IMG/VR virus record: IMGVR_UViG_2802429219_000009
Length of the DNA: 4,758 nt
Strand: one strand, 5' to 3'
Source: a virus
Lineage: Duplodnaviria > Heunggongvirae > Uroviricota > Caudoviricetes
Shown here: piece by piece, positions 1-4,758 of the stretch
Layout: each line of letters begins with the position of its first letter
How positions within the stretch are numbered: position 1 is the stretch's first letter
Notes under the pieces: generated by a model
Databases searched by the model: none
What the model saw: only the letters and a program-made list of their open reading frames with translations
Told to the model about the DNA's origin: nothing
Translations under genes and position numbers: made by a program

Positions 1-2160
1 GGTTTTCCGCCTTCACATGCCGGGACCATTACCGTCTATGAAGGTTCCAGACCAGGTACGCTGAATGATTTTCTCGGTGCCATGACGGAAGATGATGTCA
101 TGCCGGAGGCATTGCGTCGTTTTGAGGCAATGGTGGAAGAAGCGGCACGCAACGCTGAAGCCGCCTCTCAGAGCGCAGCAGCGGCAAAGAAATCCGAAAC
201 TGCAGCGGCATCATCGAAGAACGCGGCGAAAACCTCAGAAACGAATGCAGCTAACAGCGCACAGGCGGCAGCGTCCTCGCAGACTGCATCGGCAAACTCC
301 GCGACAGCAGCCAAAAAATCAGAAACCAATGCGAAAAACAGTGAGACAGCCGCAAAGACGAGCGAAACCAACGCAAAGTCCAGCCAGACGGCAGCGAAAA
401 CAAGCGAAACGAATGCCAAAGCCAGTGAAACTGCGGCGAAAAGCAGTCAGGATGCAGCAGCCGAAAGCGAGAGTGCTGCAGCTGGTTCTGCGACTTCAGC
501 AGCTGGATCAGCAACTGCTGCGGCTAACAGCCAGAAAGCCGCGAAGACGAGCGAAACTAACGCAAAGTCCAGCCAGACGGCAGCGAAGACCAGCGAAACG
601 AATGCCAAAGCCAGCGAAACTGCGGCGAAAAACAGTCAGGATGCAGCAGCCCAAAGCGAGAGTGCCGCAGCTGGTTCTGCAACAGCGGCAGCTAATAGCC
701 AAAAAGTTGCAAAAACCAGTGAAACTAACGCAAAGACGAGTGAAACAAAAGCAGCAGCCAGCGAGACAGAAGCAACGTCAGCCGCAACAAGAGCAGAGAA
801 TGCAGCCCGGATTGCAGAAGATGCCGCTGATCCTGCTTCTGTCCCTCCGCTTCCTGATATCTGGCTACCCTTGAATGATTCTCTGGAAGCGATAACAGGG
901 TATGCCCCGGGCTATAAAACAATAACCATCGGCAGTGATGAAATAACAATGCCTGTTAATGGCATATGCCAATTTAGCCGGGCTTCATCTGCAACGTATA
1001 TTGATAAGTCCGGGCATATTACCGTGGCAGGGAATAACGTTCCTCGTTTTGAAAAATATGGTTTGCTGATAGAGAATCAGCGAACAAACATGTTCGTAAA
1101 TAGTTTTAATCCTGATGCCTGGAATAAAAGCGGTGGTATATCTGTAACATCATCAACAGATGAATTTGAGTTTAAATATGGACGTTTCACGGTAGGAAGC
1201 GATATAGCAGGAACGACAACAGGGCGAAATATATGCACAGTTGCTGGTAACAAAGGCATAGATGTGACTGGCGATGATCAGTACAGTAAAGGTCCGTATG
1301 TTACCGCGTCGTTCAGGGTAAGAAGTGATCTCAATGTTCGCGCACGTATCCGTTTTGAACGATATAACTCGGAAGGATACACCTTCCTTTGCGACGCCTA
1401 TTTGTCATTACAGACCCATGAACTACAAATTACTGGTGGCAATGCCCAGCTATTAACAGCAAACTTTGAAATCGATCCAGGTAGTGGATGGATATATTTT
1501 CAGGCAACACTGAAATGTCTGCCAGAATGGGGAATGGTTGGTACGCAGCTGCAAATTGCAGCCGACAGAGCTGTGGGGTCTTTTGCAACAGGTGACTGGA
1601 TAGAAGTAACCACCCCGCAATTCGAGTATGGTGCTTGTGCAACTTCCTTCATCATAACGACAACTGAGCCAGCGACTCGTGCATCAGATTTATGTAAATT
1701 TCCGCTGATGAAAAATATGTATACCATGCCTTTTACGTTCATGGTGGAAGTCCATAAAAACTGGTTTATTTCTCATAATGCGGCACCGCGTGTCATTGAT
1801 TCAGAAAATCACCAGTCCGGAGGCCCATTTATTATGGGGTTTGGTTCTTCTGGAACTATTAGTCAGGACGGTTATTCGTATTGCGATATAGGCGGGGCTA
1901 ACCGACGTGTATATGAGTCATGCGGAGTAAGAGATCTTGTTATGGGATTCAGGGTTAAGGCTGACGGCATGACATGCTCATTTGCAAATAAGCATATAAG
2001 CACAGAAACAAAAACAGTATGGAAATATATTCGTGAAGCTGCTGTGATTCGTATCGGGGGACAAACGACGACAGGATTACGACACCTTAATGGTCATATA
2101 AAAAACCTCCGTTTCTGGAACAGAGCATTGTCAGATACGCAGCTTAAGGAATACGTATAA
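1..2160 (+). CDS. stf: Side tail fiber protein, 5'-partial (frame open from base 1; first in-window ATG at 82). Lambda Stf/StfR-like N-terminal region and Ala-rich repetitive shaft, then a different C-terminal tip ending in a LamG/concanavalin-like motif
   Basis: Frame 1 is open from nt 1 with no stop until TAA at 2158-2160. The translation begins GFPPSHAGTITVYEGSRPGTLNDFLGAMTEDD, which matches the conserved region of lambda Stf / E. coli StfR as I recall it. Residues about 30-250 are low-complexity KTSETNAK / AAxSxxAA repeats typical of Stf shafts. The C-terminus ends ...GLRHLNGHIKNLRFWNRALSDTQLKEYV, resembling the terminal strand of LamG-like jelly-roll domains. The alternate-frame and antisense ORFs over 92..949 are composition artifacts. 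Confidence 0.85.
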   Translation, partial: GFPPSHAGTITVYEGSRPGTLNDFLGAMTEDDVMPEALRRFEAMVEEAARNAEAASQSAAAAKKSETAAASSKNAAKTSETNAANSAQAAASSQTASANSATAAKKSETNAKNSETAAKTSETNAKSSQTAAKTSETNAKASETAAKSSQDAAAESESAAAGSATSAAGSATAAANSQKAAKTSETNAKSSQTAAKTSETNAKASETAAKNSQDAAAQSESAAAGSATAAANSQKVAKTSETNAKTSETKAAASETEATSAATRAENAARIAEDAADPASVPPLPDIWLPLNDSLEAITGYAPGYKTITIGSDEITMPVNGICQFSRASSATYIDKSGHITVAGNNVPRFEKYGLLIENQRTNMFVNSFNPDAWNKSGGISVTSSTDEFEFKYGRFTVGSDIAGTTTGRNICTVAGNKGIDVTGDDQYSKGPYVTASFRVRSDLNVRARIRFERYNSEGYTFLCDAYLSLQTHELQITGGNAQLLTANFEIDPGSGWIYFQATLKCLPEWGMVGTQLQIAADRAVGSFATGDWIEVTTPQFEYGACATSFIITTTEPATRASDLCKFPLMKNMYTMPFTFMVEVHKNWFISHNAAPRVIDSENHQSGGPFIMGFGSSGTISQDGYSYCDIGGANRRVYESCGVRDLVMGFRVKADGMTCSFANKHISTETKTVWKYIREAAVIRIGGQTTTGLRHLNGHIKNLRFWNRALSDTQLKEYV
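352..750 (+). repeat. In-frame tandem coding duplication in the fiber shaft: copy A 352..540 (189 bp), copy B 541..708 (168 bp), then a diverged partial third copy from 709. Copy A also carries an internal 21-bp duplication (481..501 and 502..522)
   Basis: Read directly: gcaaagacgagcgaaaccaacgcaaagtccagccagacggcagcg... at 352 recurs as gcgaagacgagcgaaactaacgcaaagtccagccagacggcagcg... at 541 with only scattered substitutions. The protein-level copies are AKTSETNAKSSQTAAKTSETNAKASETAAKSSQDAAAESESAAAGSAT(SAAGSAT)AAANSQKA and AKTSETNAKSSQTAAKTSETNAKASETAAKNSQDAAAQSESAAAGSATAAANSQKV. Confidence 0.8.
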
Positions 2161-2429
2161 TGCGGGATATAACATTACGATTCGATAACAGAGAACAGTT
2201 TAACGCAATTGTATATGACAGTGGCCTGTTCAGTCTTGAAGAAGAAAACGGGGTTCTTGTTGATGTTATTGGCTGCGTTATCGATTACGAGGAGCCAGAA
2301 AACGAAAGATGTACAGGCATTGATCGCGGTGGTTTTTTCGTAAATATGAGGATCGTTGATAGCAGTAAAAATATATCTTCTTTAATGCCTTTCATTACGA
2401 CAGATCAGCATGTAAGGACATGGGCTTAA
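2160..2429 (+). CDS. Hypothetical small acidic protein (89 aa), translationally coupled to the tail fiber gene; function unknown
   Basis: ATG at 2160 overlaps the stf stop (TAATG). AAGGA at 2146-2150 lies 9 nt upstream of the ATG. The ORF is co-directional and tightly packed with its neighbours, with no hydrophobic segment. I recognise no family by eye. Confidence 0.55.
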   Translation: MRDITLRFDNREQFNAIVYDSGLFSLEEENGVLVDVIGCVIDYEEPENERCTGIDRGGFFVNMRIVDSSKNISSLMPFITTDQHVRTWA

Positions 2430-2441
2430 TGGAGTAAGACA

Positions 2442-3125
2442 ATGGTTACAAAAACAGTAATTCCGGGAGACATCACCACGCTAAAGGGAGATATTTCCTC
2501 AATTAACGGAAAAGTATCAACGCTTCAGACTGAGATGACCAGTGCAAAGCAGGATATCAGCTCCAGATACACAAAAACTGAAGTTGATAATAAGCTGAAA
2601 AACAAAGTGGAAGTGAACGATCTGGAAAGTGGTCGTTATGGCGGAGATTTTTATCCACTGACAGGTCGTGAAGCGTTTTATTTATGGAATTTGGCCACGA
2701 CTACAGCGGCGGCAAACCTTTATCTTAATCCTGACCCCGCAATTTCGTCTGTGCTGCGGTCAACATCGTCTATCCGCTATAAACATTCAGTAGAGACAAT
2801 AGATTCAGAGCACGCTGATCTCATTTTCAGGATGCGCCCTGTGTGGTACAGGTCACAATGCGAAAATGACAGGCGTGACTGGGGATTCTACGGATTGATT
2901 GCCGAGGAAGTAGGAGAAATTGCCCCTCAGTTTGTACACTGGCGACCAGCTAACGAAGATGATGCACCGGAAGCTATTTCCAGCAATGGCCTTGTTGCCG
3001 AAGGTGTAATGTACGAACGTCTGGTTGTTCCACTGATTCACCATATCCAGAAGCTGACTGAAAGAGTTGATGAACTTGAGTCAGAATTAAAGTTGTTATC
3101 CGTTTCCCGAAGCGATATCGGATAA
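2442..3125 (+). CDS. Tail fiber-like protein (227 aa) with an N-terminal coiled-coil-like segment and a C-terminal intramolecular chaperone domain (peptidase S74 / endosialidase-chaperone type)
   Basis: GGAG at 2431-2434 lies 7 nt upstream of the ATG at 2442. Residues about 105-220 (nt about 2754-3101) read SSIRYKHSVETIDSEHADLIFRMRPVWYRS...WGFYGLIAEEVGEIAPQFVHW...GLVAEGVMYERLVVPLIHHIQKLTERVDELESELKLL. This follows the S74 chaperone pattern (S-D-x-R-x-K-x-N-I ... P-V-x-Y ... G-F-I-A-Q-E-V ... Y-x-x-L-I-P-L-L-I-x-A-I-x-E-L ... coiled coil) recalled from endosialidase and T5 L-shaped fiber C-termini. Confidence 0.8.
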   Translation: MVTKTVIPGDITTLKGDISSINGKVSTLQTEMTSAKQDISSRYTKTEVDNKLKNKVEVNDLESGRYGGDFYPLTGREAFYLWNLATTTAAANLYLNPDPAISSVLRSTSSIRYKHSVETIDSEHADLIFRMRPVWYRSQCENDRRDWGFYGLIAEEVGEIAPQFVHWRPANEDDAPEAISSNGLVAEGVMYERLVVPLIHHIQKLTERVDELESELKLLSVSRSDIG

Positions 3126-3135
3126 AGGAGGAGTA

Positions 3136-3429
3136 ATGGATATAACACCTTTCCTTCATGCACTTTGTGCTGTGGCTGCGCAGGTACTGATTGGCCTTTT
3201 TACCGGAAACTGGGTTTACGGTGCGATAGCTGGTTGTACGTTCTTCATTGCGCGTGAACACACCCAGGCAGAATATCGCTGGATTGAAATGTTCGGGCAT
3301 GGCAAGCGGATTAACATGCCGTGGTGGGGCGGTTTTGATCCGCGTGTTTGGGATGTGGCAAGCCTGATAGATTTTGCTGTGCCGGTGGTGGCGTGTCTGC
3401 TGGTCTGGCTGTTGGTTAATCGTGGGTGA
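3136..3429 (+). CDS. Small hydrophobic membrane protein (97 aa, 2-3 predicted transmembrane segments), function unknown; candidate lysogenic-conversion or superinfection-exclusion gene
   Basis: A strong RBS (AAGGAGG at about 3125-3131) lies 5-6 nt upstream of the ATG at 3136. There are hydrophobic stretches at residues about 6-38 (FLHALCAVAAQVLIGLFTGNWVYGAIAGCTFFIA) and about 74-94 (VASLIDFAVPVVACLLVWLLV). It is the last gene of the co-directional block. Confidence 0.7.
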   Translation: MDITPFLHALCAVAAQVLIGLFTGNWVYGAIAGCTFFIAREHTQAEYRWIEMFGHGKRINMPWWGGFDPRVWDVASLIDFAVPVVACLLVWLLVNRG

Positions 3430-3439
3430 AAAAAGGTGA

Positions 3440-3559
3440 GCTGTATATGCAACGGAGGAAGAAACCCCGTTGCTGGAAGCCAGGAAAAAGTATCGGGTGT
3501 TGCTGAACCGTGTTGATACGTCAACTGCACAGGATATTGAATGGCCAGCACTGCCGTAG
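3440..3559 (+). pseudogene. tfa: 3' relic of a tail fiber assembly (tfa) gene: a start-less 39-codon frame encoding the conserved Tfa C-terminus
   Basis: Frame 2 is open only from 3440 (preceded by an in-frame TGA at 3437-3439) to TAG at 3557-3559 and encodes [39 protein letters not shown]. The motif [11 protein letters not shown]-x-A-x-DIEWP is the conserved C-terminal signature of Tfa/U-type tail fiber assembly proteins as I recall them. There is no ATG and nothing upstream to complete a full-length tfa. Confidence 0.6.
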
Positions 3560-3656
3560 GGTAAAACATATAAATTCTATAATTAGATGTATCTTTCCAT
3601 TTACGGCAAGGAAGGGGGCTTGGAAGACGTAAAGCATCTCACACCGAGATTATTTT

Positions 3657-4247
3657 TTATATGTCAGGTGTCTGAAGTTTTGCTTTGGCTCTTAAAATGG
3701 TTTGCCGCGAGGTTTTGAATTCCCGGGCAATGGCACTTATACTTACACCTGACTTAATCCGTTCGAATACCACCTGTTTCTGTTCTTCATTTAACACAGG
3801 TGGTCGACCAAAACGTTTCCCTGCGCCCCGGGCTCTTACTATCCCGGAATGAGTGCGTTCAAGTAAAAGGTCTCGTTCAAATTCAGCGACTGCTGAAATT
3901 ACTTGCATCATCATTTTTCCTGTTGGACTGGTCAGGTCAATGCCCCCCAATGCTAAGCAATGCACTCTGATACCTGTTTCGGTCAGTTGTTCCACTGTTT
4001 TCCTGATATCCATTGCATTACAACCAAGGCGATCCAATTTTGTCACAATCAATTGATCACCACATTTCAGGCGAGCAAGCAACCGGTTAAAACCAGGACG
4101 CTCACTGGTTGCTGCTGAGCCGCTAATGTGTTCTTCGATTATTTGCTGAGGTTTGATTTTAAAACCTGCACTTTCGATTTCCCGGCGTTGATTTTCGGTG
4201 GTCTGATCCAGCGTTGATATCCGACAGTAAGCAAAAATTCGAGACAT
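3657..4247 (-). CDS. pinR: Serine recombinase / DNA invertase of the Pin family (PinR/PinQ-like), 196 aa
   Basis: Intact 196-aa ORF on the - strand. The N-terminus [15 protein letters not shown] carries the catalytic-serine motif of resolvase/invertase-type serine recombinases (Ser at position 11), and the C-terminus has an HTH-like segment ([21 protein letters not shown]). From memory this is essentially the E. coli cryptic-prophage PinR/PinQ sequence; I cannot distinguish pinR from pinQ here. Its placement convergent to the stf/tfa genes matches Rac/Qin/e14 organisation. Confidence 0.92.
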
Positions 4248-4340
4248 AGTGAGACTCTATACGAAATTGGTGTTCATATCATAATGCATCTCAGAAAATA
4301 ATTTTGATTATTTTTGTGCATATTTGTATGTGCACGTTCG
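4248..4340 (-). promoter_or_regulatory. Putative pin promoter/leader region in AT-rich DNA (candidate -10 TATGAT on the - strand, + coordinates 4278-4283; no convincing -35 found)
   Basis: This is the non-coding stretch immediately upstream of the pin start codon, and it has a weak RBS (AGAG). Only a -10-like hexamer was identified by eye, so this is a low-confidence positional inference. Confidence 0.3.
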
Positions 4341-4696
4341 AAAATAAACGAATGCGTATGCAACCCCGTAATTTTGGTGAGACCCAAAATCGATTTTGTG
4401 AAAAATGGCTTTAACTCGGTTTGTTTTTCGAGTTCCGGGCGGACTCAAGGAAGAAGAATAGTGTTGCGTGTTATTTTAACCAGATTTCAAGTTGTTTGGT
4501 CGTGGAAAAGTGGAGCAAAATGTTGTTAAAGTGGAAAAATGATAAAAAAGTAAGTTTATTATATTACATTTTACCATTTAAATTTTGGTTGTCTTTAAGA
4601 ACTGATATCGCTGTTTGTAATAATTCTTTGTTGAGCTGGCCCCCTGAAATACCAGACAGTAGATGTATCTTAAAATAAGAGATAGGCTTGGATATA

Positions 4697-4758
4697 TGTC
4701 TAACACTAGTTCTAATTTTGAGATGGCTGGCGTTTTGTTAGGAAAAGAGGTGCGTAAA
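4697..4758 (+). CDS. Possible 5' end of a + strand ORF running out of the window (MSNTSSNFEMAGVLLGKEVRK...)
   Basis: ATG at 4697 is preceded by AAGAGATAGG about 8 nt upstream, and the frame stays open to the window end. It is only 20 codons and AT-rich, so this is speculative. Confidence 0.2.

Follow-up and report, generated by a model that had tools for sequence, protein, structure and literature searches.

Side and lateral tail fibres set which cell surfaces a phage sticks to first, and the swapping of fibre tips is a main natural, and now also engineering, route to a new host range. The receptor suggested in the literature for lambda Stf is OmpC. Lambda Stf/Tfa, StfR/TfaR of Rac, and Stf/Tfa of mEp460 share with the locus analysed here the PF08400 domain, a position after J/lom and a homologous Ala-rich shaft. 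In engineered lambda STFs (lambda-P2, lambda-K1F, and lambda-K5, as well as lambda-KL106), an N-terminal part of Stf joined to a heterologous distal part redirects adsorption (PMC11338833). Rcc01080 (GhsB), the head spike fibre of the Rhodobacter gene transfer agent (RcGTA), binds capsular polysaccharide (PMC10218006). In the BASEL work, the lateral fibre loci of T5-like phages, Drexlerviridae, Queuovirinae, and Vequintavirus were found conserved only at the far N-terminus, and binding of these fibres to O-antigen glycans was suggested there, although not directly demonstrated (PMC8594841).

The window, that is, the whole stretch of 4,758 nt analysed, came from a lambdoid prophage at the Qin site of E. 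coli, of which it was the right end; its genes were stf, followed by three small ones, a remnant of tfa, and pin. A boundary, a mosaic pattern, homologies, and a scar were observed in it. The best explanation of the locus as a whole, to which we assign a probability of roughly 0.85, is that a portable module begins at nt 841 (± 3), that the gene is of mosaic origin, and that its tip is lectin-like.

Anchor and shaft of stf

Frame 1 was open from nt 1 to nt 2160; its translation started with GFPPSHAGTITVYE, ran through Ala-rich repeats of the KTSETNAK type, and continued as AEDAADPAS|VPPLPDIWLPLNDSLEAITGY. The start of stf lay 198 nt upstream of the window, giving a complete Stf of 785 aa. The order L-K-I-J-lom-stf was present in a locus of 99.9% identity, and the upstream part of stf as well as J-lom-stf were visible in NZ_CP196265. 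The PGAP annotation breaks the intact stf gene into two pieces.

Nucleotides 1–198 of the plus strand were the 3′ part of the sequence for the N-terminal domain by which Stf attaches to the virion, matching PF08400 (phage_tail_N) in Pfam with an E value of 4.1e-28 and 98.5 bits (cut-off 26.6) at profile positions 66–131 of 134. These last 66 residues are the in-window share of the domain, which was complete in NZ_CP196265; at the DNA level, nt 1–155 shared about 85% identity with lambda, Rac, and mEp460. An Ala/Ser/Thr-rich shaft of KTSETNAK-type units (repeat families D1 to D3) followed at nt 199–840 of the same strand, containing a tandem duplication of 189 nt with copies at nt 281–469 and 470–658. 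Comparison with StfR/Stf homologues had been proposed in a preliminary description made from the sequence alone as the way to find where identity collapses. The BLASTP alignment with lambda Stf (orf-401; 57% identity over 359 aa) spanned to the shaft end, RAENAARIAEDAADPAS versus RAKNSAKRAEDIASAVAL in lambda, and ended at full-length residue 347, corresponding to nt 843, while lambda orf-314 and the distal parts of StfR and mEp460 Stf gave no BLASTP match to the tip.

Tip module and downstream genes

The portable module was 439 aa long, starting at nt 841 with VPPLPDIW. Its first part, at nt 841–972 (plus strand), was a conserved connector or neck, VPPLPDIWLPLNDSLEAITGYAPGYK..., with the motif PLPD(I/V)W.P.NDSL; this neck was covered by no Pfam family, and AF2 confidence was low over module residues 1–40. 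Next to it, nt 973–1641 (plus strand) encoded a first beta-sandwich homologous to Rcc01080, with a score of 48.2 bits to NCBIfam NF048003 over in-window residues 356–561, above the cut-off of 36. PDB entry 6tb9 was matched at an E value of 5.6e-4 when the single sequence was searched, and a profile search lowered this to 7.2e-11. This sandwich was modelled with pLDDT above 90 and was the most variable part of the tip, homologues sharing 24–38% identity in it versus 45–61% in the neck, and the last 40 C-terminal residues of the tip were conserved. The remainder, nt 1642–2160 (plus strand, up to and including the stop codon), encoded a C-terminal LamG/concanavalin-A-like domain that has the jelly-roll beta-sandwich fold of the LamG superfamily; against PF13385, the window sequence scored 21 bits, below the gathering cut-off of 27.6 (E 4e-4), and 25 of the 50 aligned homologues matched at E ≤ 0.001, the best being 1.9e-11.

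The AF2 model of the tip, built from a 50-sequence alignment, had a mean pLDDT of 87 and superseded a first run with 14 close homologues (mean pLDDT 55, only module residues 90–265 usable, weak Foldseek matches). Its best structural match was gp46 of Pseudomonas phage Pa193, a baseplate wedge protein that has not been proven to be an adhesin; the tip may therefore serve in part as a docking platform. The tip is no orphan, since PHROG already has a family for the complete architecture and NCBIfam one for the middle domain. The lectin-like tip probably binds surface polysaccharide (O-antigen, capsule, or LPS core) in a reversible first adsorption, rather than OmpC; if so, the adsorption range of this prophage would differ from those of lambda and Rac.

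Alignments by BLASTP to the fibres of mar004NP2, tuinn, JenP1, nomine, and Lambda_2E9 began at nt 838–841 (full-length residues 346–347). With 33% to 54% identity, the tip stood behind unrelated anchors in fibres of Demerecviridae, Drexlerviridae, Queuovirinae, and Vequintavirus and in those of other prophages, the similarity beginning in every case at nt 838–841, and at least five unrelated N-terminal anchors were found ahead of the module. It was matched by 2098 representative protein clusters, 126 of the 150 best matches beginning at module residues 1–5, and the length of the N-terminal part varied widely among related clusters. In an alignment of 49 homologues, the module was C-terminal in nearly all, with 0 to 1058 residues ahead of it. 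Its N-terminal partners included PF08400, PF12571, PF03406, and PF18668 domains, one partner being presumably a T5 pb1-like N-terminus. The tip was present in 218 phage records; PhiR55_1 (record host E. coli C), with a 100% identical tip, speaks for viability, and the literature, when searched for its receptor or host range, yielded only an off-topic paper mentioning the phage.

Three small genes followed on the plus strand. The start of orf89 (nt 2160–2429; phrog_1361, E 9.6e-31), encoding a small acidic protein, overlapped the stf stop codon, and each of the 11 loci examined, from five phage groups, had a homologue directly after the tip gene; these homologues shared 29–37% identity, except for that of CE0007a, the same allele (99%). 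Orf227 (nt 2442–3125; phrog_3299 and phrog_454) encoded a second, short fibre whose C-terminal part holds the self-cleaving chaperone domain Peptidase_S74 (PF13884, E 7.1e-6, residues 109–165). The second fibres that mar004NP2, JenP1, tuinn, and lambdoid phages carry have kept its N-terminus, MVTKTVIPxDITxLK, and in nine of the 11 loci a second fibre with a conserved N-terminus of 15–28 aa, M(V/A)T(K/S)TVIPxDITxLK, followed the orf89 homologue, orf227 and its counterparts diverging beyond it. The loci with a second fibre spanned the siphovirus groups examined, and nomine had no clear counterpart. The small hydrophobic protein of orf97 (nt 3136–3429; phrog_1443, E 3.4e-58) was encoded with 93–98% DNA identity in lambdoid phages with different tips, and no annotated 97-aa counterpart was present at the T5-like, Vequintavirus, and Queuovirinae loci (the small ORFs following in tuinn being left out). 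Orf97 belongs to the lambdoid backbone beside the scar, outside the portable cassette, and the exchanged unit is larger than the tip, with downstream genes included. What class of receptor is bound, which role orf89 has, and the attachment mode of the second fibre are inferences; orf89 may encode a tip-specific chaperone or adaptor.

The regular company of orf89 homologues and second fibres bears on where the adhesin lies. The tip might be mainly a branching node, which together with orf89 docks orf227 as the real exchangeable adhesin, the junction then being one between shaft and adaptor. Branched fibres are documented in DT57C (LtfA/LtfB) and phiEco32 (gp14/gp15) (PMC4728585), and the frequencies given above, 11 of 11 loci and nine of 11, as well as the conserved last 40 residues of the tip, agree with such a role. 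So does the independent swapping of the second fibre, for which a 346-aa allele, bounded by breakpoints at nt 2485 and 3135, takes the place of orf227 in CE0007a. However, the high variability of the middle domain is that expected of a receptor-contacting surface, and Lambda_2E9 and PhiR49_2 carry the tip and the small ORF without a second fibre gene. We therefore regard this alternative as possible yet rather unlikely, and it is compatible with the lectin-like tip preferred here if one fibre bears two adhesins.

A broader reading of the lectin-like tip, which must be taken as tentative and, with all its parts together, as doubtful, is that the PLPD(V/I)W.P.NDSL connector opens a cassette complete in itself, with three genes at most, that moves as a unit and builds a branched fibre end with two adhesins. 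It would comprise the lectin-like tip, a partner of roughly 90 aa, and a short S74 fibre bearing a universal N-terminal anchor, and would be passed among temperate lambdoid prophages and phages of the virulent T5-like, T1-like, Queuovirinae, and rV5-like groups. Some 2000 protein clusters contain the connector, which lies outside the curated families; if the cassette reading is true, fibre tips would be spliced naturally and generally at this connector, and engineering could use it likewise.

Nature of the junction

At nt 840/841, the amino acid composition changed sharply, as the preliminary description had noticed in the passage from an Ala-rich, Stf-like shaft to a sequence containing Cys, Trp, and Tyr. 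From nt 1–840 to nt 841–2157, Ala fell from 30.7% to 6.8%, while Cys rose from 0% to 2.1%, Trp from 0% to 1.8%, and Tyr from 0.4% to 4.1%. The G+C content fell from 0.548 to 0.435, and the earlier counts for nt 361–420 (31/60) and nt 1021–1080 (25/60) were correct on recounting. The compositional step placed earlier near nt 820–880 was real, with the best change point of total G+C at nt 912 (reached in none of 1000 permutations), but it proved a poor sign of foreign origin: most of it was at codon position 2 (0.646 to 0.460), so that it mirrors amino acid content, mainly Ala/Ser/Thr codons, and is weak alone and not independent evidence. At the third position, G+C fell from 0.450 to 0.364, with the best change point at nt 666 (reached in seven of 1000 permutations).

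Two repeats were rejected as candidates. A 25-nt direct repeat at nt 62–86 and 872–896 (LNDFLGAMT/LNDSLEAIT, 76% identity) was equalled by many chance pairs in the same list, and the inverted repeat I1 at nt 752–786 and 822–856 (71% complementary) is low-complexity Ala-codon sequence, given zero weight. A scan of the window for promoters and terminators gave counts at shuffle level and none at the junction.

The identity collapse at the DNA level was located by maximum chi-square against relatives of the same architecture, and the breakpoint fell in the last shaft repeats at nt 738–753 (plus strand) for five of the six such relatives with differing tips: 738 for 2G7b, 741 for IdasGG and PhiR46_1, and 753 for Tritos and PhiR49_2. 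In these five, mismatches were 3–10% to the left and 43–51% to the right, that is, 90–97% versus 49–57% DNA identity. Tritos, 2G7b, and PhiR46_1 shared 90–100% identity with the window up to about nt 690, and IdasGG was equally close outside its own repeat deletion. The breakpoint thus lay about 90–100 nt upstream of the domain boundary and did not coincide with it. A junction at nt 780–900, as first proposed, therefore holds for the protein (nt 838–843), whereas the collapse in DNA identity is just outside that interval; the suggested division of the in-window ORF at residue 251 was close to the measured residue, 254. The 5′ part of stf was matched in 4788 of 5426 complete E. coli genomes and the whole gene with this tip in 132.

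A second trace was found at nt 3448–3559 (plus strand), where DNA identity revealed the last 36 codons of tfa, labelled by PGAP as a tail fiber assembly protein with its N-terminus missing. From nt 3448 on, identity was 98% to Rac and mEp460, and 91% to lambda tfa. This remnant marks the right border of the replacement and shows that a lambda/Rac-type tip and its chaperone were replaced.

The step in identity, the heterologous anchors, and the tfa remnant together bear out the original proposal of a conserved Stf shaft grafted to an exchanged tip. They also decide against vertical inheritance of one gene whose two domains, a coiled shaft full of Ala and a head rich in beta structure, merely differ in composition. 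The predominance of codon position 2 in the G+C difference and the modest difference in GC3 would suit such a gene, as would homologues uniform along their length, the observation that was named at the outset as refuting exchange: CE0007a shares 98.5% identity along the whole gene and PhiR55_1 has an identical tip. These homologues are no objection because they are the same allele; the identity step and the heterologous contexts already refute inheritance without exchange, and the leftover tfa codons speak against it as well, making it extremely improbable.

A pinQ-type serine DNA invertase was encoded on the minus strand at nt 3657–4247 (Pfam Resolvase, E 2.5e-36, and HTH_7; phrog_125 DNA invertase). 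The left crossover site of Mu, P1, and e14 marks where the constant part of the fibre gene meets the variable part, a layout also seen for e14 in this analysis. With such an invertase gene 1.5 kb downstream and adjoining the fibre genes, one might suppose that an invertible segment (Mu G, P1 C, or e14 P type) is driven by Pin to switch fibre tips and has its crossover site at the junction, but this is hardly credible: the window has no pix-like site above chance (the e14 pix sites, derived from the inverted repeat flanking the P segment, were matched at 16 of 26 positions at best, equal to the median maximum of 100 shuffles with a range of 15–19, and the AAACCNNGGTTT core gave 5 matches versus 2.7 expected, a chance level), no long inverted repeat joining the stf gene to the pin side was found in the window, and from stf to pin the plus strand carries all three annotated genes, with the minus strand holding only ORFs of chance length and no alternative tip.

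Under the preferred reading of a mosaic gene with a portable tip, the upstream part would be a widely shared, lambda-type anchor to the tail tip with an Ala-rich repeated shaft, and the downstream 439 aa would be a module of connector, variable RcGTA-type beta-sandwich, and LamG-like jelly roll. The module would have arrived by recombination together with at least orf89, and probably with orf227, the incoming block replacing the lambda/Rac-type gp37-like tip and most of tfa and leaving its last 36 codons. Lambdoid relatives would exchange through the nearly identical shaft repeats as homology, which would place the DNA breakpoint at about nt 740–755, and the functional splice point across phage families would be the connector at nt 841.

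Comparison with known systems

A chimeric stf is a well-known route to changed bacterial attachment; the conclusion is correct but ordinary, and the general understanding of fibre mosaicism is unchanged by this window. The window does map a natural fusion point precisely, at the end of the Ala-rich shaft and the PLPD connector, where the scaffold of lambda Stf is linked with a family of tips common to at least five coliphage groups, and it indicates neighbour genes that probably must travel with the tip. These data can be used in the design of chimeric lambda particles and in annotation.

Compared with lambda, Rac, and mEp460, the stf gene has the lambda-type N-terminal domain and location downstream of J/lom, and with lambda orf-401 it shares the end-of-shaft motif RA.N.A..AED.A; with Rac, the window shares the same tfa 3′ end and pin/ydfK flank. 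In contrast to the three, this stf has no similarity past nt 843 and no gp37-like distal half, its locus has no intact Tfa, and where lambda and Rac have the distal half and tfa, the locus has the lectin-like tip, orf89, and the short S74 fibre.

Similarity between the tip and Rcc01080 (6tb9, NF048003) extended over about 250 residues, both alignments starting from residue 45, with a common motif, ATY..G...A....PR(F/Y)....GLL(I/L)E...TN, although overall sequence identity was low. Rcc01080 is a free protein of 325 aa, anchored to the capsid spike base via its N-terminal 10 residues, whereas in the window the corresponding domain forms a fusion with the end of a tail fibre shaft, and an additional LamG-like domain comes after it. 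The similarity to Pa193 gp46 and the E217 baseplate wedge protein (9b45, 8env), which are parts of myovirus baseplates, was a match at the fold level only, with 13–16% identity. As for the invertible systems, the window shares with Mu G, P1 C, and e14 P a neighbouring serine invertase, but has neither inverted 26-bp sites nor a tip and chaperone on the opposite strand.

The same 439-aa module is found in the lateral fibres of virulent coliphages, namely T5-like phages (mar004NP2, AKFV33, and FFH1), Drexlerviridae (tuinn and tunus), Queuovirinae (JenP1 and JenP2), and Vequintavirus (nomine and FFH2). In these it is always C-terminal, at the identities given above, behind anchors and shafts different from those of the window; the small-ORF homologue is next at each of their loci examined, and a second fibre is present at the three siphovirus loci. 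As in DT57C LtfA/LtfB, the window has tandem fibre genes, the second with a conserved N-terminus and a variable distal part. Fusion points in the engineered STFs are at lambda residues 393 and 528, whereas the junction in the window corresponds to about lambda residue 353, at the end of the Ala-rich shaft. The window is thus a natural version of the chimeric lambda STF design.

Organization of the prophage end

A lambdoid prophage occupies the Qin site of E. coli, and the window represents its right end. Over nt 1–4632, the window shared 99.9% identity with NZ_CP196265, where L-K-I-J-lom-stf are followed in order by a small ORF, a "tail fiber domain" gene, a small ORF, a tfa (fiber chaperone) fragment, pinQ, ydfK, ynfT, and a truncated ydfJ. 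The side tail fiber gene, stf, begins outside the window, 198 nt further upstream, and stops at nt 2160, forming an intact ORF of 785 aa. It is followed on the plus strand by orf89 (nt 2160–2429), orf227 (nt 2442–3125), orf97 (nt 3136–3429), and the tfa remnant (nt 3448–3559), whereas an intact pin, encoding a serine invertase of the pinQ type, lies on the minus strand (nt 3657–4247). In the PGAP annotation of the 99.9% identical RefSeq genome (L001, 5803–8160), stf was divided into a pseudogene fragment, made up of the 5′ 367 nt, and a separate CDS, "phage head spike fiber domain-containing protein", beginning at window nt 949. Re-translation of stf in the RefSeq genome gave one unbroken ORF; the split therefore looks like an annotation artifact caused by the modular structure. 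Matches to prophage relatives all ended at nt 4632, and the following 126 nt (nt 4633–4758) shared 97% to 98% identity with one end of an insertion sequence of the IS3 family, mostly in plasmids; in this strain, pin and ydfK are therefore separated by an inserted IS.

Junction between shaft and tip

Three independent sequence comparisons placed a protein-level boundary in Stf at nt 841 ± 3. The BLASTP alignment with lambda orf-401, a part of lambda Stf, showed 57% identity across the N-terminal domain and the entire Ala-rich shaft; its final stretch set RAENAARIAEDAADPASV opposite RAKNSAKRAEDIASAVAL and ended at residue 347 of the full-length protein (nt 843). The 439-aa tip beyond it had no BLASTP match in lambda orf-314 (also a part of lambda Stf), distal StfR of Rac, or distal mEp460 Stf. 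Alignments with the fibers of mar004NP2 (T5-like), tuinn (Drexlerviridae), JenP1 (Queuovirinae), nomine (Vequintavirus), and Lambda_2E9 (divergent lambdoid) all started at residue 346–347 and extended to the C-terminus, with 39% to 51% identity. When 1.84 billion representative proteins were searched with HMMER, 2098 clusters matched at E ≤ 0.001, the match beginning at tip residues 1–5 in 126 of the best 150. Nearly all of 49 aligned homologues had the module at the C-terminus, with 0 to 1058 residues ahead of it. Its N-terminal partners included PF08400 (lambda Stf type), PF12571 (tail-collar fiber), PF03406, PF18668 (TSP1/gp66 type), and, presumably, a T5 pb1-like N-terminus. Separate homology of the 5′ and distal parts, as anticipated in the preliminary description, is borne out by these end points, since similarity to lambda stops where that to the T5-like, Drexlerviridae, and other fibers starts. 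Many of the 2098 clusters matched just the first 90–130 residues of the tip, often as two or three stretches (nt 841–1110), so the connector (nt 841–972) and the start of the first domain seem to be joined elsewhere to other distal domains; no Pfam family covered this region.

At the DNA level, five lambdoid relatives sharing the architecture and carrying other tip alleles (Tritos, 2G7b, PhiR46_1, IdasGreatGrand, and PhiR49_2) had maximum chi-square breakpoints at nt 738–753, with 90% to 97% identity on the left and 49% to 57% on the right. The recombination point of this lineage therefore lies in the last shaft repeats, 90–100 nt upstream of the domain boundary; in Lambda_2E9, a sixth relative with a differing tip, the breakpoint was far earlier, at nt 273. 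Thus, the interval originally proposed for the junction, nt 780–900, holds the protein boundary and just misses the DNA breakpoint, while the expected collapse of identity was found. Other discrete end points of similarity, among 4860 E. coli records, fell at nt 155/158, 272/278, 378/384, 429, and 682/693, so the shaft repeats evidently act as a recombination substrate. The 5′ part was matched in 4788 of 5426 complete genomes, and at least 80% of nt 1–2160 in only 132. The shaft contains a 189-nt tandem duplication (nt 281–469 and 470–658, 82% identical) as well as 42-nt sub-repeats. Relatives are distinguished by repeat-unit deletions (about 200–350 nt in IdasGreatGrand, PhiR49_2, and Lambda_2E9), and fiber length therefore varies through repeat recombination.

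A compositional step accompanies the junction. The sequences quoted in the preliminary description are present and both of its 60-nt G+C counts are exact. Ala accounts for 30.7% of the residues up to nt 840 and for 6.8% of those beyond, Cys and Trp are confined to the latter part, and Tyr rises from 0.4% to 4.1%. The G+C content is 0.548 in nt 1–840 versus 0.435 in nt 841–2157, with a change point at nt 912 that was reached in none of 1000 permutations. The main source was the second codon position (0.646 to 0.460); GC3 dropped only from 0.45 to 0.36, with its change point upstream, at nt 666. The step is therefore real, yet a consequence of Ala/Ser/Thr codons, and by itself says little about origin.

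Tip domains and downstream genes

The connector, the first ~44 residues of the tip (VPPLPDIWLPLNDSLEAITGYAPGYK...), shared 45% to 58% identity with the 49 homologues and was predicted with low confidence as a monomer. The first domain (tip residues 45 to about 290) is homologous to Rcc01080, the head spike fiber of the Rhodobacter capsulatus gene transfer agent (NCBIfam NF048003, 48.2 bits with a cut-off of 36; PDB 6tb9, E = 5.6e-4 by single sequence and 7.2e-11 by profile), which binds capsular polysaccharide (PMC10218006). The second domain, the last ~170 residues, is LamG-like; PF13385 scored below the cut-off for the window sequence and was found in 25 of 50 homologues (best E = 1.9e-11). 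The AlphaFold2 model of the tip, from a 50-sequence alignment, had a mean pLDDT of 87.2 and a pTM of 0.85. Variability within the tip is greatest in the first sandwich (24% to 38% identity), and conservation is strongest in the connector and over the last 40 residues. The whole protein belongs to PHROG 1419, its two halves matching at E = 1e-122 and 6e-185.

A homologue of orf89 (29% to 37% identity, phrog_1361) was located directly 3′ of the fiber gene in 11 of 11 loci from five phage groups, its start overlapping or abutting the fiber-gene stop in the loci inspected with coordinates; the exchanged unit is thus larger than the tip alone. The orf89 reading frame begins on the final base of the stf stop codon; its product is acidic and without known domain, and is a candidate tip-specific chaperone or adaptor. 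Next came a second fiber gene in nine of the 11 loci, with a conserved N-terminus, M(V/A)T(K/S)TVIPxDITxLK, and a variable remainder; the first 15–28 residues are conserved across T5-like, T1-like, Queuovirinae, and lambdoid phages. The orf227 product has a Peptidase_S74 self-cleaving chaperone domain preceded by only ~100 residues, so the mature fiber would be very short. CE0007a corresponds to the window over nt 1–2485 and 3135–4632, with an unrelated 346-aa second-fiber allele between, and the second fiber is exchanged independently. By analogy with DT57C LtfA/LtfB and phiEco32 gp14/gp15 (PMC4728585), such a short second fiber may dock on the tip, giving a branched fiber; the reading of the tip as a branching node is less likely than not, and is compatible with an exchanged, receptor-binding tip.

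Identity of 93% to 98% was shared by orf97 (phrog_1443) among lambdoid phages with different tips, and no orf97-sized counterpart was annotated at the T5-like, Vequintavirus, and Queuovirinae loci; it is therefore probably part of the lambdoid flank. It always adjoins the tfa scar and has about three hydrophobic segments; a membrane-protein moron and an exclusion protein are both possible identities of its product. Identity from nt 3448 onward was 98% with Rac and mEp460, and 91% with lambda (last 102 nt of tfa). The 36 codons at nt 3448–3559, annotated by PGAP as a tfa fragment, correspond to the TfaR C-terminus with two substitutions and lack a start codon. This remnant is a replacement scar, left when an incoming block displaced distal stf and most of tfa in an ancestor that carried tfa and pin and whose tip was of the lambda/Rac type.

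With an intact pin nearby, the junction might be the crossover site of a Pin-mediated inversion, but the e14 pix sites, taken from the inverted repeat flanking the P segment and scanned against the window, matched at best 16 of 26 positions, the median maximum of shuffled sequence; the core motif occurred at chance level, and the opposite strand carries no coding sequence for an alternative tip. A recognizable crossover site for pin was absent within the 4.7 kb examined, and the stf-tfa-pin arrangement is also found in Rac and mEp460. The identity step, the heterologous contexts, and the tfa scar rule out a purely compositional domain boundary with no exchange.

Possible function and comparison with known fibers

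At this locus, a discrete, widely shared C-terminal module from nt 841 goes together with shaft-repeat breakpoints, folds of the lectin type, conserved neighboring genes, and the tfa scar. The exchanged tip would bind a surface glycan and mediate reversible primary adsorption, as suggested for lateral fibers of related siphoviruses (PMC8594841); its receptor would therefore differ from OmpC, suggested for lambda Stf (PMC11338833, PMC11990801). An identical tip is present in PhiR55_1, whose host in the GenBank record is E. coli C, so the gene is probably functional in a viable virion.

It is established that tail fibers are mosaic, their distal parts being exchangeable behind a conserved N-terminal anchor; PMC8594841 describes this for these phage groups, and engineered lambda STF chimeras make use of it (PMC11338833). 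RefSeq already contains the stf gene, and curated families exist for both its architecture and its middle domain. What is new is the exact mapping of the junction, the connector as a recurrent splice point across ~2000 protein clusters and at least five coliphage groups, the small ORF and second fiber that travel with the tip, and the tfa scar. Although the finding is correct and sharply bounded, it adds an ordinary case to a known kind.
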